DNA from: a virus
Reading direction: 5' to 3' (one strand)
UHGV virus genome: UHGV-0099331
DNA length: 18,860 nucleotides
A program made the position numbers and the translations under genes. The notes beneath the pieces were generated by a model. That model was not told the origin of the DNA and did not search any database. It saw only the letters and a program-made list of their open reading frames with translations. Below are positions 8,310 to 16,626 of the stretch, piece by piece (positions within the stretch are counted from its first letter, which is position 1; every line of letters begins with the position of its first letter).

Positions 8310-8971
8310 GCGTTAGTTTCTCCACAGTCACGACACGCCACGGCGCCCGGAGCTGCACACTCGCGGGCGTCATTACTTTCTGAAATGCAAAAGATTTTGT
8401 AGACCAGTGCTGCATGCTCCTGCAGCTTCGAAATTGAGAGATACAGCTCGTCGTTAATTGCTGTCTTCTCATGCGGTTCCACCACACCGTCTTCGATTGC
8501 CGAACGAATCTGTCTGGAATAACTGCCAATCTGTTCAATGACTTCCAGCAGGCGCTGGTTAATATCGGCGTTGTCCACATCCTCGACGTCAGGAAGAGAC
8601 ACAAAGACGCCATTTGCAGACTGCGCCACAGCGTCAGCAATGAAGTGAGTTCCACCAGCACGTTGCAAAATCATTGCCCATCCCAGCGGGAAAATCTGAT
8701 CGCCATCGGCACGAAGGCGGTTAAATAATGCGTTTTCTGTTACATCCAGCCAGTCAGCTGCTTCAGCGTAACCACCCGGCAACGCTGCGATAGTTTTTCT
8801 GACAGCTTTCACGTACCACTCAGGCTGTTTTTCTACTTTCCAGTGATGCTTACCCACGGTTAGCCTCATCGTTCTGTGGTTTCTGTTAATCGATTTATCC
8901 ATTAGATTTTTCATAAAGCTCAGGTTTAAATGGCAACCGTCCGCAAGTTCTATATGCAGCTTCTGCTGCAC
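8306..8971 (-). CDS. cII-like / YdaT-like regulatory protein
   Basis: ORF immediately downstream of the cro-like gene in the PR operon. The N-terminal extent is uncertain because the track ORF overlaps cro by 77 nt; internal ATGs at 8914, 8902 and 8869 are alternatives. Family call is by position and weak recollection. Confidence 0.5.
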
Positions 8972-9095
8972 GTCCTTTTGGAATTAACTGGCCCGGACGG
9001 TTTCGCCACTGATAAACGGCTTCAGTTGTTATGCCGAAAAAAGCAGCAACTTTCTCAATACTGCCGAAGTAGCTTTCGATATCGTCAGTTGTCAT
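8895..9095 (-). CDS. Cro-like repressor (YdaS/Cro family HTH)
   Basis: 66 aa; divergent from cI across the operator region; HTH segment VAAFFGITTEAVYQWRNR; GGAGG Shine-Dalgarno. Confidence 0.75.
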   Translation of the reverse strand: MTTDDIESYFGSIEKVAAFFGITTEAVYQWRNRPGQLIPKGRAAEAAYRTCGRLPFKPELYEKSNG

Positions 9096-9105
9096 ACGCC
9101 CTCCA

Positions 9106-9172
9106 AACTAAGTTTTATTAGATGCTAATTACAAATCTATCTTTGGTCAATAAAAACTAAGATTACTTAGCA
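9106..9172. promoter_or_regulatory. OR-like operator region between cro and cI
   Basis: Two inverted-repeat sites with shared half-sites: CTAAG-N4-ATTAG (9109-9122) and CTAAG-N4-CTTAG (9157-9170). Confidence 0.5.
9122..9150 (-). promoter_or_regulatory. PR-like promoter for the cro operon
   Basis: Minus strand: -35 TTGACC (9145-9150), 17 bp spacer, -10 TAGCAT (9122-9127); the 9109-9122 operator overlaps the -10 and start region. Confidence 0.45.
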
Positions 9173-9192: not shown

Positions 9193-9819
9193 ATGGAAAC
9201 GGTTGGTCAGCGTATAAAAGCTCTGAGAAGAGTTACCGGAACGTCCCAGAAAGAATTGGGTAAATTTTGTGGAGTAAGCGACGTTGCTGTGGGGTACTGG
9301 GAGAAAGACATCAATACCCCTGGTGGGGAGGCACTTTCGAAATTAGCGAAGTTCTTCAATACGTCAATAGATTACATTCTTTATGGTGCTGAGTTTGAAG
9401 GCAAACTCGTCACAAACATGCGCAGAGTTCCTGTAATATCGTGGGTTCAGGCTGGGCAGTTTACTGAGTGCAGGGCAGCAGAAGTGTTTAGTGAAGTGGA
9501 CAAGTGGGTAGATACATCATTAAAGATTGGTGATAACTCATTTGCATTAGAGGTTAAAGGTGACTCCATGACTAACCCTAATGGCCTCCCAACAATACCA
9601 GAAGGCGCAACAGTGATTGTAGATCCAGATGCAGAACCTCGTCATGGAAAAATAGTCATCGCTCGACTTGATGGAACAAACGAAGCTACAGTAAAAAAAT
9701 TAGTCATCGATGGCCCTCAAAAGTTTTTAGTGCCATTAAATCCTCGGTATCCCAACATCCCTATCAATGGTAATTGCCTTATCATTGGTGTAGTCAAAGG
9801 AGTTCAATACGAACTCTAA
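9193..9819 (+). CDS. CI-type prophage repressor (HTH_XRE plus LexA-like S24 peptidase, SOS-cleavable)
   Basis: 208 aa; N-terminal HTH (QRIKALRRVTGTSQKELGKFCGVSDVAVGYWE); VQAGQF Ala-Gly cleavage motif as in lambda CI (VQAGMF); GDSM catalytic Ser and a downstream Lys. Confidence 0.9.
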   Translation: METVGQRIKALRRVTGTSQKELGKFCGVSDVAVGYWEKDINTPGGEALSKLAKFFNTSIDYILYGAEFEGKLVTNMRRVPVISWVQAGQFTECRAAEVFSEVDKWVDTSLKIGDNSFALEVKGDSMTNPNGLPTIPEGATVIVDPDAEPRHGKIVIARLDGTNEATVKKLVIDGPQKFLVPLNPRYPNIPINGNCLIIGVVKGVQYEL

Positions 9820-9835: not shown

Positions 9836-9901
9836 CTAAGGCACCGAACTAAGAAAAGTTTGGTGTTTTCTCTTGCCATAATAACTAAGTTAAGTTAGAT
9901 T
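9836..9901 (+). promoter_or_regulatory. OL/PL-like operator-promoter downstream of cI
   Basis: Three CTAAG half-site occurrences (9836, 9849, 9885-9898 as CTAAG-N4-GTTAG) matching the OR half-sites. Plus-strand promoter -35 TTGCCA (9873-9878), 17 bp spacer, -10 TAGATT (9896-9901). Confidence 0.45.
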
Positions 9902-9989
9902 TTATATCAAAGATAACGAACAGGCAGGACGCCCACGAAGTAGCCGCCTGGGGCATATGAAGTCCAGGATGATTCGTTAGCAACAAAAA

Positions 9990-10054
9990 AGCGCCCTACA
10001 GGACGCTTAGCTCTTTAACAATCTGGTCCCCATCAACAAGTAACTGATAACTTG
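9990..10054 (+). promoter_or_regulatory. nut-like leader: boxA consensus flanked by two small hairpins
   Basis: AGCTCTTTAACAA at 10009-10021 matches boxA (TGCTCTTTAACAA) at 12 of 13 positions. Hairpins at 9990-10007 and 10037-10054. Confidence 0.35.
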
Positions 10055-10066
10055 AGGAGATGTGAA

Positions 10067-10273
10067 ATGCACAAAACAGAACCCAAAATCGTCGCGCCTG
10101 GCTACACAGATGAGGAAATTTATGAGTGGATGACAAAGAAGCTGGCAGCTATAAACCAGCTTCGTGAAGTGCTGTCTTATCGACAGGAAACAATAGACTC
10201 CTTAAAAAAACTGGATCAGGAAATCACGGTTTTATCACAGGATGTTACTTTAGATATTGTGCAGACAAATTAG
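10067..10273 (+). CDS. Hypothetical small protein (68 aa), first gene of the PL-like operon
   Basis: ATG at 10067 with GGAG at 7 nt; AT-rich; predicted helical. Not arginine-rich, so not an obvious N homolog. Confidence 0.5.
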   Translation: MHKTEPKIVAPGYTDEEIYEWMTKKLAAINQLREVLSYRQETIDSLKKLDQEITVLSQDVTLDIVQTN

Positions 10274-10679
10274 GATCCCATTCATTTTCGTCAAAATCAT
10301 CAAAGTGATGAATTTGTGATCTCCAGTCTCGATAATCTAAAAATTTCTGGGCGGTTACGCTTATTTTATCAAGTGTGAGTTCATCCTGAATTGAAAGAAG
10401 AAGTTCATCAAATTTCATCTCATTAATCTGTTTTGGCATCCAGTGATGCTTCATCAGAATAAGGTGAACCAGAGCCTTTTTCCCATTCAACTGATTATAG
10501 GGAGTGCCGAATTTCTTCCGGTGCTCATGTAAGACAAGGTCCAAAAGAGTAAGTAATGTTGCCCTTGATTCAACTTTGCTTATTTCGACTGATGACACTA
10601 CCCCACTGATTTCAATGCCCCGATACTTTCCAACATTTTCACAGTGGGATTTGTACAGCGTATAGATATTACCGGACAT
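10245..10679 (-). CDS. Hypothetical protein (144 aa), AT-rich, convergent with and 3'-overlapping the 68 aa gene
   Basis: ATG at 10679 with AAGGA Shine-Dalgarno. Low GC relative to the phage backbone. No recognisable family. Confidence 0.55.
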   Translation of the reverse strand: MSGNIYTLYKSHCENVGKYRGIEISGVVSSVEISKVESRATLLTLLDLVLHEHRKKFGTPYNQLNGKKALVHLILMKHHWMPKQINEMKFDELLLSIQDELTLDKISVTAQKFLDYRDWRSQIHHFDDFDENEWDPNLSAQYLK

Positions 10680-10963
10680 TTCTTTTCCTTTTGCATTGTT
10701 GGGGATAACCAGATTAACCGAATCCTTGTTGTTGGGGAATAACTAGGTCCACCTCGCCTGATGTGGCTAAAAGCAGGCACATAACAGCTAAGTATTTTCA
10801 ACCAGAGAGAATCCTTAGCGTTGTGGTGAATGCGGCTCAGCGCACGCGGGTTAAGGTTGAGGCTGACAGTCGACCTTCTGTGGATACCCACCCGCCTGGT
10901 GTGCAACCTTCGCCAGGCACCGGGAGGCACCCGGCACCACAACTTTATGCTGTGTGTAGTCTT

Positions 10964-11010
10964 GGCGGTACCAGCTTGTACCCTTGCTTCCGGCTGGTAC
11001 CGTCCTTTTT
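10964..11010 (+). terminator. Strong Rho-independent terminator (tL-like)
   Basis: 12 bp stem GGCGGTACCAGC / GCTGGTACCG(T)CC with a 17 nt loop, followed by TTTTT (11006-11010). Confidence 0.55.
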
Positions 11011-11012
11011 AC

Positions 11013-11098
11013 AAAACAGAGAAGAGCATCACCGGACGACGGGCTCATAACCCAATCCATCCGGGCGGCAGTCACCGCAGGTGTTCTTCTCTGTTTTG
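11013..11098 (+). terminator. Long imperfect hairpin with nested inner stem; second terminator-like structure or structured RNA
   Basis: Outer arms AACAGAGAAGAGCA (11013-11026) and TGTTCTTCTCTGTT (11082-11095), followed by TTTTG. Inner GC-rich stem CACCGG...CCGGGCGG...CACCGCAGGTG. Confidence 0.4.
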
Positions 11099-15218: not shown

Positions 15219-16175
15219 TTATTTACCCTTATTATACTCTTCAGTAATCTTATTCATGGATGATATATATTTATCCAGCCCACCATAGTTGGCTATCATT
15301 CGAAATGAATTACGGTACTCTGCCATTTTCACATCATGATTAGTAATTCCACACCAGCCACAAACTTTATTTTCCATGTTTAAAGGCTCATAACATTTTT
15401 TACATTGCCTTGATGCAGGTATTATATTGCCATTAATAAATTGGTGTGATTTGAGATTTTGAGATAAAAGAAATGGTGTAGTTGTTGTTTTTCCTATTAC
15501 CATTTCGAAATATCTACATTTAGCCTTTTTAGCTAAAGATTGAATTTTCTGCTTTAATAAATCATTTGATTTGTGCCCAACTATAACTCCAGTTATACAA
15601 TTAATCGGTACCGGAAGGAGCATAAGATTGTCATTCAGTTTAGTAAGTGCTTTCTCATTAATTATTACGCGACGTTCCTGCTCATAACTCCAGCAAGTTT
15701 GTTTTGTCAAATATGCGGCTGTCATTATACAGGATTGTAGCCAGTAGATATAACGAGGTTTACAGATATGAAATGCTCTCGCCAGAATGTCTTCAATACC
15801 TGTATCTGGAGAATCTTTATATTCAACATCTGCTATTGAACTATGATCCTGGAAGCCGATTTCATCCAAATACTTTTTAAACTTCTCCTCATTAATCTCT
15901 ATTACAAAACCAGAAGAATTACCTGCATAATGTGCCCACATAGGTGGTATCACAGGGCTTTTCGTAAAACAAGTTGCTGGTTGTTTTGTAACCATGCCAA
16001 TCATTTCATTGTAAAATGCTAACTCATCAGAACCGCGATTAAAATCAATAGTAAGGAAAAACTCATAGGGATCATTATATTCATGTAAATGAGAGAATTT
16101 TATTCCTATATGTGTTTCATCCATCATCAATTTATCAATTATATCCGCTCCCATAAACTTATACAAATTGGTCAT
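15219..16175 (-). CDS. DUF2971-like protein with C-terminal zinc ribbon (cargo gene, AT-rich)
   Basis: ATG at 16175 with AAGGAG at 6 nt (318 aa). Motifs LYKF...FSHLHEYNDPYEF, CFTKSP...MWAHYAG and CWSYEQERR fit my recollection of DUF2971; C-terminal CKKCYEP...CGWCG. Markedly AT-rich. Confidence 0.6.
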   Translation of the reverse strand: MTNLYKFMGADIIDKLMMDETHIGIKFSHLHEYNDPYEFFLTIDFNRGSDELAFYNEMIGMVTKQPATCFTKSPVIPPMWAHYAGNSSGFVIEINEEKFKKYLDEIGFQDHSSIADVEYKDSPDTGIEDILARAFHICKPRYIYWLQSCIMTAAYLTKQTCWSYEQERRVIINEKALTKLNDNLMLLPVPINCITGVIVGHKSNDLLKQKIQSLAKKAKCRYFEMVIGKTTTTPFLLSQNLKSHQFINGNIIPASRQCKKCYEPLNMENKVCGWCGITNHDVKMAEYRNSFRMIANYGGLDKYISSMNKITEEYNKGK

Positions 16176-16261
16176 ATACAACTCCTTTTTTATAAAATAA
16201 CATTTTAAATCATATGATTATGGAGGCACAAAATCCAGTAATTAGTTTTCAAGCCTGTTGT

Positions 16262-16626
16262 GATGTAGTTCGAGGACAAACTGAAACGTATTATTGATAA
16301 CAGTCGCGATAACGTTGCCTGCCCGTATATCGTTCACCGTATACCGAGCGTAATAACAAACGCAGTAAAGAGGTATCCGCACCTGCCTATCTTAGCCATA
16401 CTTTTCATTGCCCCGTGATTCGTTAGGCTTGTGTAATAATTTGACGATGGAGCTGCGCCCCCACATTCCACAAAATACGCGCACTAGCTGCATTTTGTTT
16501 GATAAACAGGGAGTAGACCACAAGGGCTTATAGCCCACAGCGACGCGAAATCAACGAAAATTTATACGCGGAACCATATGATTGGGTAATGCTTCCGCAC
16601 GGTGAAATTAAATATAATGCATAATA
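16262..16626 (+). pseudogene. Integrase 3'-end remnant (degraded duplicate of the int C-terminal region)
   Basis: DNA-level similarity to int 14716-15081: shared blocks GAAACG-ATTATTGA-AA-AG-CG-GA-AA, AAACGCAGTAAAGAGGT, GCGA-GCGAAATC-AC-AAAATTTATAC and GAAATTAAA. The conserved stretch translates as KLKRIIDNSRDNVA (int has LKRIIDNSRDNVA); the central part is degenerate and lacks an intact frame. Confidence 0.7.

Follow-up and report, generated by a model that had tools for sequence, protein, structure and literature searches.

We identified a conserved pair of convergent genes in an 18,860-nucleotide stretch of viral DNA (UHGV virus genome UHGV-0099331, hereafter the window), which is a lambdoid prophage of the SfV/SfIV/CPS-53 type of E. 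coli. One gene, designated ORF68, is the first ORF of a transcript predicted to start at a PL-like promoter just after cI, and the other, ORF144, is encoded on the opposite strand and overlaps the 3' end of ORF68. Comparison of homologous loci indicated that the two genes form a portable, polarity-locked accessory cassette ("moron") of temperate enterobacterial phages. Our best reading, to which we assign a probability of roughly 0.4, is that ORF144 may be an exclusion or abortive-infection protein expressed in the lysogen and ORF68 its lytic-phase antidote.

The pair was noticed in a preliminary description of the window, which was made from the DNA letters alone and reported two convergent ORFs sharing 29 nt. 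This geometry was borne out by the ORF list, the start codons and the Shine-Dalgarno sequences (overlap, 10245-10273). The plus-strand ORF is listed from a TTG codon (10052..10273); its ATG at 10067, which has a GAGGAG Shine-Dalgarno sequence (10054-10059) 7 nt ahead of it, gives a product of 68 aa. Both ORFs are real genes as judged by profile matches and, for ORF68, by the substitution pattern. ORF144 matched NCBIfam NF033230 (ECs1072 family phage-associated protein) with 157.8 bits (cutoff 70) over residues 4-144, and PHROG 5286 over residues 1-144 at 1.5e-90, and ORF68 matched PHROG 1744 over residues 1-68 at 6e-35. Six substitutions separate the first 48 codons of ORF68 from those of the E. 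albertii allele, of which 5 were synonymous in frame (0/6 and 1/6 in the other frames); two metagenomic loci, L022 and L023, were left out of these counts because of frameshifts in the contigs. The earlier view that neither protein could be recognized was thus replaced, as both belong to named though uncharacterized families. Homology searches placed the two proteins in the ECs1072 and YdfC families, and neither homology nor structure searches with ORF144 led to a relative of known function or to an informative structural match. AT-richness of the pair relative to its neighbors, which had also been proposed, was confirmed to a moderate degree: the GC content was 0.38 in ORF144 and 0.41 in ORF68, compared to 0.43 in cI, 0.47 in the window, 0.50 in yfdP and 0.52 in the following non-coding stretch.

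The evidence for a conserved module comes from a search for the convergent partner of ECs1072 homologs. A hidden Markov model (HMM) was built from the first 54 alignment columns of 8 partner ORFs and applied to all 10,237 ORFs (minimum, 40 aa) obtained by six-frame translation of 119 sources, which together comprise 789 kb. Its significant matches were exclusively ORFs convergent at the 3' end of an ECs1072 homolog, and subfamilies outside the training set, among them those of Serratia (L026) and of loci L113-L118, were recovered at the same position. A convergent partner was present in 109 of the 111 ECs1072 loci (18 clusters at 80% identity, 8 at 50%). The 3' end of 105 of these partners lies inside a strict interval around the ECs1072 stop codon, with overlaps, where present, of 9-227 nt, and the remaining four were shortened by a premature stop and end 52 or 97 nt short. 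Partner calls were missing for L008 and L115, the latter showing a weak match at the right place. Prophage Sp4 of strain Sakai, which was analyzed separately, has a convergent ORF with the partner motif at a weaker E-value of 2.6e-4. The N-terminal ~50 residues of the partners follow the pattern [EQ]P.[IF]..[PG]G.[TD]..[EQ][LI]..W[LM] and precede a coiled-coil-like stretch; partners in other operon contexts have diverged to 25-45% identity. The co-directional operon layout of type II toxin-antitoxin systems was found in none of the 109 paired loci, all of which have convergent genes.

The pair occurred in prophages of E. coli, Shigella, Salmonella, Klebsiella, Yersinia, Serratia, Pectobacterium, Proteus and Pantoea, in four operon contexts: (i) just after cI in the early-left operon (E. 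coli, E. albertii, Yersinia, Pectobacterium, Proteus and IMG/VR loci L110-L118); (ii) between Q and holin (the sb50 region of ST64B, five Klebsiella phages and ~75 IMG/VR loci, and Serratia); (iii) in the cox-to-gpA early operon of a P2-like phage (Pantoea); and (iv) in the early-right operon of Sakai Sp4, between a cII-like gene and a replication gene, which is the location of ECs1072 itself (now ECs_5703). Without exception, the partner is read in the direction of the flanking lytic operon, in which the ECs1072 gene forms an anti-oriented island. YdfC-like genes were also found without an ECs1072 homolog in Qin-like phages, and ECs1072 genes almost never without a partner.

The site after cI is a swap slot for cassettes. 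Comparison of SfV, SfII, PhiR29_1, mEp460_4F5, ST64B and sal3 revealed a variable segment between two conserved RNA-like blocks, A and B, and in the window this segment holds boxA, ORF68, ORF144 and minus-strand terminators. The slot is occupied by a plus-strand gene of 98 aa in SfV and of 122 aa in mEp460_4F5, and by minus-strand genes belonging to different cassettes in PhiR29_1, SfII and sal3. The E. albertii allele of ORF144 is 72% identical to that of the window, within flanks that are ~99% identical in DNA alignment, and was therefore counted as allele swapping. What had been named the N/rex position is thus a variable cassette site instead. The swappable segment, the conservation of the convergent module in four operon contexts and the assignment of ORF68 to the YdfC family all go beyond the preliminary description. 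The window-type locus was present at a coverage of at least 80% in 406 of 5,426 complete E. coli genomes (~7%); several E. coli chromosomes were 100% identical over 1.4 kb around the gene pair, and phages Kati, vB_EcoS-569R4, vB_EcoM-689R6 and SfIV were 98-99.8% identical over this region.

The distribution of the pair also bears on a possible coincidence, in which ORF68 would simply open the early-left operon as a backbone gene and ORF144 would be an unrelated moron inserted beside it. YdfC-like genes are indeed ordinary early-left genes in Qin-like phages that have no ECs1072 gene, and the allele swap in E. albertii hits ORF144 and spares the N-terminal domain of the partner. However, pairing, convergence and overlap recur away from PL, in the Q-holin interval, the P2-like early operon and the early-right operon of Sakai Sp4, and the partner HMM matched just that position among the 10,237 ORFs, which makes a chance association improbable.

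An exhaustive HMMER search showed that the ECs1072 family consists of 76 clusters at 50% identity, all of them single-domain proteins of ~145-155 aa. In a 47-sequence alignment, L50, R54, L64, G66, A69, H72, W134 and a C-terminal EWDP motif were near-invariant. AlphaFold2, run with this alignment, predicted an all-helical protein of eight helices (pLDDT 94.7, pTM 0.89), and the sequence is of a soluble type (GRAVY -0.47, no hydrophobic segment). Searches of Pfam returned no family for ORF144 (E up to 0.1) or for the 47 family members, a sequence-profile search of PDB gave no informative match, and a word-index search retrieved close relatives only, with all source names being "hypothetical" or "ECs1072 family". 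Weak HD-GYP and HDOD neighbors were recurrent but were dismissed because the HD-type residues are not conserved. As modeled, ORF144 is a real, conserved and probably well-folded protein with no detectable structural relative in the searched libraries. In the GenBank records examined, the ECs1072-family ORF was unannotated in ST64B (L027 3281-3715, +) and in a Klebsiella phage (L028 3345-3791, +); these records annotate only the convergent partner (sb50 and GP45), and the ST64B call has an over-extended N-terminus.

ORF68 showed 39-41% identity over 97% of its length to 19 phage genes (tblastn), most of which are annotated as ydfC or YdfC family; its membership is defined by similarity to these depositor-annotated genes and by the PHROG profile, with no Pfam or NCBIfam model matched. 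These ydfC relatives sit in Qin-like dicBF operons with the order cI/dicA, a 118 aa gene, ydfC, dicB, ydfD and exoVIII. The ORF68 alleles of E. albertii and of a minority of E. coli loci have A8 in place of an A7 homopolymer, which results in an 80 aa product with an unrelated tail and a 64 nt overlap with ORF144. This difference could reflect mutation, phase variation or slippage. The 80 aa variant was rejected as the true ORF68 because the L..LDQEIT.L motif, which is also present in YdfC and in the Proteus homolog, is preserved only in the frame that gives 68 aa, and the window thus carries an intact ORF68.

ORF68 is acidic (pI 4.8) and has only two arginines, no arginine-rich motif and no match in Pfam, in agreement with the preliminary description, in which it was acidic and did not look like N. 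These properties argue against a divergent N-type antiterminator acting at the boxA leader, a role suggested by the position of ORF68 directly after PL and the boxA-like element. In addition, homologs of ORF68 occupy the Q-holin interval and P2-like operons, positions at which a nut-type role is inapplicable, and no boxB-type hairpin follows boxA; the neighboring hairpin lies before boxA and is a minus-strand terminator. We regard an N-type function as highly improbable.

The exclusion-and-antidote reading would work as follows. In the lysogen, PL would be repressed and ORF144 made from its own promoter, and the protein would act against incoming phages as an exclusion or abortive-infection factor. 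Upon induction, transcription from PL would cross ORF144 in antisense. boxA elements, together with Nus factors, protect transcripts from Rho, and the boxA of this leader would probably shield the PL transcript over ~1 kb of poorly translated RNA. ORF144 would be switched off by transcriptional interference or antisense pairing, and ORF68 made from PL would neutralize the ORF144 protein already present, such that lytic growth of the prophage itself is not aborted. YdfC-like genes in phages that have no ECs1072 gene could then be counter-defense genes. We favor this reading because the polarity is fixed in four unrelated operons and because the dependence of ECs1072 on its partner is one-sided. 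Circumstantial support includes a SieB-family gene (PF14163) that follows the ECs1072 homolog on the same strand in a Yersinia prophage, the alternative cassettes at the slot, the 72% identical allele, and the microarray listing of ECs1072 among significantly regulated genes in uninduced Sakai cultures (PMC2241611).

The roles of the two proteins might also be reversed. Here, the YdfC-like partner would be a host-takeover or otherwise toxic early protein of the lytic phase, and ORF144 a lysogen-expressed inhibitor that guards the lysogen from leaky PL transcription and blunts superinfecting relatives relying on YdfC-like proteins. The first genes of PL operons are often directed against the host, as are kil, cIII and gam of lambda, and a protein acting solely on the partner would account for a partner family that is found alone and an ECs1072 family that almost never is. 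YdfC itself, described only as a small protein of unknown function, is encoded in the toxic dicBF operon beside the division inhibitors DicF and DicB (PMC5069750). On the other hand, no toxicity has been reported for ydfC, and a filamentation screen mentions it just as a neighbor of dicB and dicF (PMC6206680). A prophage would also gain little from inhibiting its own early protein, and the convergent layout, which turns the inhibitor off as the effector is made, is compatible with reversed roles without giving them special support. Overall, we consider this arrangement rather unlikely, though the most probable of the alternatives to exclusion and antidote.

Another explanation involves the DNA upstream of ORF144. 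Alignments of upstream regions revealed a non-coding block of ~75 nt in front of ECs1072 genes in several subfamilies, whose conservation exceeds that of the proteins. It is composed of a -35 element (TTCTCC, TTCACC or TTGCCA), 16-17 nt, an extended -10 element (TGgTATCTT, replaced by TGaTAAAAT in Klebsiella-type loci) and a short leader to the Shine-Dalgarno sequence, and an inverted repeat, CCAC-N11-GTGG, lies within the spacer (10749-10766 in the window). The window retains the left part of this block and has ~40 nt extra before the ATG of ORF144. The best hand-picked candidate for the ORF144 promoter, TTCCCC-17-TAATCT, agrees with the consensus at 6/12 positions only and is not claimed. 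The non-coding motif with this repeat, which reads CCACCTCGCCTGATGTGGCTAAAAGCAGGC on the plus strand (10749-10779), was observed in the upstream regions of ECs1072 genes at L013, L015, L017, L026 and L110-L118; it persists in SfV-like phages that have no cassette, and it was also present just upstream of ydfC in Qin-like phages (L121 2948-2978). It may be an operator, a promoter element or an RNA element.

Such a block could indicate a regulatory brake that acts mainly in cis, in which convergent transcription and antisense RNA from the ORF144 promoter would damp leaky or premature PL, PR or late transcription and the ORF144 protein would regulate its own promoter or the switch, with the inverted repeat in the promoter spacer as its operator. 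P2 and 186 are known to use interference between convergent promoters in their switches, and the polarity fixed relative to the lytic operons in all four contexts and a promoter block with CCAC-N11-GTGG that is better conserved than the proteins both fit this proposal. A pure cis role, however, would not keep a folded protein of 145 aa across 76 clusters, nor the motif of the partner, and ORF144 has no helix-turn-helix or other DNA-binding signature in Pfam. Relatives such as SfV also manage without the cassette. These considerations make a brake less probable than reversed roles, and we consider it unlikely.

Several observations weigh against the exclusion-and-antidote reading. ORF144 is small and soluble and contains no transmembrane segment or enzymatic motif, and its model had no convincing match in PDB or viral structures; as no informative structural neighbor was found either, no effector activity can be proposed for it. 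No family for ORF68, ORF144 or YfdP was found in PADLOC-DB v2.0.0 (E up to 0.1), and no phenotype is on record for the ECs1072 or YdfC family. With respect to expression, the window copy of the conserved -10 element is degenerate and a scan of the window found no consensus sigma-70 promoter for ORF144. In loci with the post-Q position, expression of the partner would come relatively late, a poor fit for an antidote. The A8 frameshift alleles of the partner occur alongside an intact ORF144, which means that the partner can do without its tail or that induction does not require the partner. Finally, the N-terminal domain of the E. albertii partner is unchanged while ORF144 has diverged to 72% identity, which speaks against a tight co-evolution of the two.

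With an anti-oriented gene, its own terminators and a partner in the lytic operon, the cassette has an architecture consistent with the class of prophage defenses that carry self-immunity, such as SieB/Esc, BstA/aba and TerI/anti-TerI. SieB of lambda and P22 is likewise the sole anti-oriented gene in the PL operon and an exclusion gene expressed in the lysogen, and in lambda sieB is convergent with N and abuts the N stop codon, the same geometry as in ORF68/ORF144. Esc is said to provide self-protection of the carrier phage, with antisense control exerted by PL-side transcription, reportedly from work of Ranade and Poteete in 1993. Unlike SieB, ORF144 is a soluble, helical protein of 144 aa that has no PF14163 match and no membrane segment, and so does not belong to this family; the candidate antidote is a separate convergent gene rather than an internal translation product. 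BstA of Salmonella phage BTP1 and its relatives is also encoded downstream of cI, is accompanied in its locus by a cognate element for self-immunity and occurs as variants with cognate specificity (PMC8585504). However, BstA is a larger protein that shares no Pfam match with ORF144, its gene has a different orientation, and its self-immunity element, aba, is a 63 bp DNA element and not a protein (PMC8585504). The TERi systems of Listeria comK prophages consist of a small prophage defense protein active in lysogeny and of separate small self-immunity proteins, anti-TerI1/2, made at induction (bioRxiv 10.1101/2025.02.27.640495). They are found in another host phylum, they are likened here by description, and their abstract does not mention a convergent overlapping layout.

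ORF68 is also related to YdfC of the Qin dicBF operon (ydfA-ydfB-ydfC-dicF-dicB-ydfD), as shown by 41% identity to annotated ydfC genes and a common EP.I.AP.YTD.E.YEWM motif. Each is a small ORF near the promoter of an early-left operon under repressor control, but the strand opposite ydfC carries no ECs1072 gene in Qin-like loci. This relationship yields a family name for ORF68 and no mechanism. It is part of a broader proposal, in which the cassette would be a new self-contained prophage exclusion or abortive-infection system built on a protein without detectable structural relatives, with an ECs1072 effector or sensor in the lysogen, a YdfC antidote supplied only from the lytic operon, a convergent overlap that enforces co-inheritance and reciprocal expression, and free-standing YdfC proteins (including that encoded by ydfC of K-12 Qin) that serve in counter-defense. 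We offer this proposal as a tentative possibility that is less probable than the exclusion-and-antidote reading alone.

Coordinates of the pair and of the surrounding elements are given in Table 1. The PL-like promoter and boxA that had been placed upstream of ORF68 were both recovered, the former with an operator-like repeat and the latter as a single occurrence of AGCTCTTTAACAA, compared to 0.04 expected. The number of promoter-like sites in this region did not exceed chance in the consensus scan, but the PL-like site is overlapped by an ACTAAG..TTAG repeat that was also found twice between cI and cro (9105-9121 and 9154-9170), a pattern expected of a PL controlled by cI. The exact boxA 12-mer was present in all window-type loci, in PhiR29_1 and in locus L115. 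ORF144, as proposed, lies on the strand opposing PL; it is conserved and is followed on its own strand by terminators located before PL and cI. The distal terminator is common to PhiR29_1, which has another minus-strand cassette, and is missing from SfV, which has none. Neither of the two ORF144-strand terminators (10163..10138 and 10008..9989) has a clear T-run on the plus strand; with T-runs on the minus strand alone, they are predicted to end the ORF144 transcript before PL and cI without blocking PL. These terminators, the extended -10 promoter block found in most subfamilies and the AT-richness together provide the anatomy of a moron.

Table 1. Positions of the convergent gene pair and associated elements in the window.
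Feature	Position	Strand	Basis and remarks
cII-like gene (CP76 family)	8306-8971	-	immunity region
Cro	8895-9095	-	immunity region
cI, LexA/S24-type	9193-9819	+	immunity region
PL-like sigma-70 promoter, TTGCCA-17-TAGATT	9873-9901	+	consensus scan
cI-operator-like repeat, AACTAAGTTAAGTTAGA	9883-9899		motif comparison; overlaps the PL-like promoter
Block A, predicted structured leader RNA at the 5' end of the PL transcript	about 9912-9984	+	conservation and RNAalifold; context, not part of the cassette
Distal intrinsic terminator, AAGCGTCCTGTAGGGCGCTT then TTTTTGTT	9989-10008	-	hairpin and T-run; ahead of PL and cI
boxA-like element, AGCTCTTTAACAA	10009-10021	+	12/13 positions of rrn boxA
ORF68, 68 aa, ATG at 10067, first ORF of the PL transcript	10067-10273	+	PHROG 1744, tblastn, synonymous bias
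Terminator-like hairpin inside ORF68	10138-10163	-	hairpin and T-run; 82 nt beyond the ORF144 stop
A7 homopolymer in ORF68	10204-10210	+	DNA alignment; tblastn frame break
ORF144, 144 aa, ATG start	10245-10679	-	ORF list, NF033230, PHROG 5286; AGGA at 10689-10686
ORF144 upstream region	10680-10790	-	upstream alignments; homolog of the promoter-like block kept across subfamilies
STnc100-like small RNA or leader with terminator, divergent from ORF144	10790-11013	+	RF02076, 43.4 bits, E 1e-7, full-length model match

Block A, of ~70 nt (~9915-9978 in the phage comparison), was near-invariant in prophages of E. coli, Shigella, Salmonella, Yersinia and Pectobacterium (including SfV, SfII and ST64B). 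RNAalifold predicted 15 pairs, 4 of them with compensatory changes. No match to block A was found in Rfam, and a covariance model of the block detected no second copy in the window. HK022 resembles this arrangement in that it is an N-less lambdoid phage with a structured RNA right after PL and a non-N gene, nun, in the "N position" (PMC9378689); Nun, unlike ORF68, is basic and has an arginine-rich motif. Block A was therefore compared with the put RNA of HK022, whose position and size it does fit, and this identity was not supported: the covariance model had no match in the HK022 PL-nun region (L021, E up to 10) or in lambda, in a test made in one direction, from the block A model to HK022. 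Block A and HK022 putL share short motifs, but their alignment was unconvincing. Block A may be a new cis-acting leader or antiterminator RNA of N-less lambdoid phages.

On the other side of the pair, block B begins at ~10749 and holds the STnc100-like RNA, whose score lies below the RF02076 gathering score of 47 bits. A bona fide STnc100 (108 bits) was found in Klebsiella phage KPP5665-2 (L028 3028-3223, -) in the same relative place; it lies between Q and holin, in divergent orientation to the ECs1072 homolog and ~120 nt upstream of it. STnc100 was considered as a third part of the module and rejected, as none was found in 8 loci representing other subfamilies (Yersinia, Pectobacterium, Proteus, Serratia, the ST64B late region, L110, L114 and L118). 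Since the element is missing from these loci and is kept by SfV-like phages that have no module, we treated it as backbone or hotspot context; block B likewise belongs to the phage backbone and need not be part of the cassette. The 3' end of the STnc100-like RNA coincides in part with a weak match to DicF (10951-11005, E 0.28), and the layout resembles that of Qin, in which ydfC is followed by a long UTR (untranslated region) with dicF and then by dicB.

Downstream of the pair, the plus strand encodes yfdP, yfdQ, yfdR, an unnamed phage gene in the yfdS position, yfdT, torI (xis) and int. Additional observations were made elsewhere in the window. A second anti-oriented AT-rich gene (GC 0.33-0.41), labeled "SDH family Clp fold serine proteinase" in RefSeq, is located between the Q antiterminator and holin genes at ~2411-3406 on the plus strand (L001 1612-2607), and thus fills the slot that houses the ECs1072 module in Klebsiella, ST64B and Serratia phages. 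Immediately past the prophage integrase, a very AT-rich region (GC ~0.31-0.37) at ~15586-18709 (L001 14787-17910) encodes a "rolling circle replication-associated protein" as well as small helix-turn-helix and DNA-binding proteins; the prophage end may here adjoin an independent small integrated element or satellite. The C4 antisense RNA and IsrK scored above the Rfam gathering scores in SfV (L002 813-1001), ST64B (L006 242-430) and the E. albertii prophage (L009 3464-3652), in each case in the ash/ant-like region. An Rfam scan of the window found neither, which means that an immI-like RNA pair of the P1/P7 type is missing there.

Both protein families are already catalogued as hypothetical, and an accessory or defense gene beside cI is a well-known arrangement; for the convergent pairing, the polarity rule and the link between ECs1072 and YdfC, no description was found in the searchable literature. 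If the exclusion-and-antidote reading is true, a compact two-protein system for defense and self-immunity would join BstA/aba, TerI/anti-TerI and SieB/Esc, and a function would be provided for the ECs1072 family, for PHROGs 1744 and 3501 and for the K-12 gene ydfC, the first for the latter. The polarity rule, with the antidote encoded along with the lytic operon and the effector against it, would be a purely genomic signature for finding similar cassettes. Even if the defense reading is wrong, a 145 aa protein that has no recognizable structural relative and is tied to a convergent overlapping partner is a well-defined and easily testable unit.

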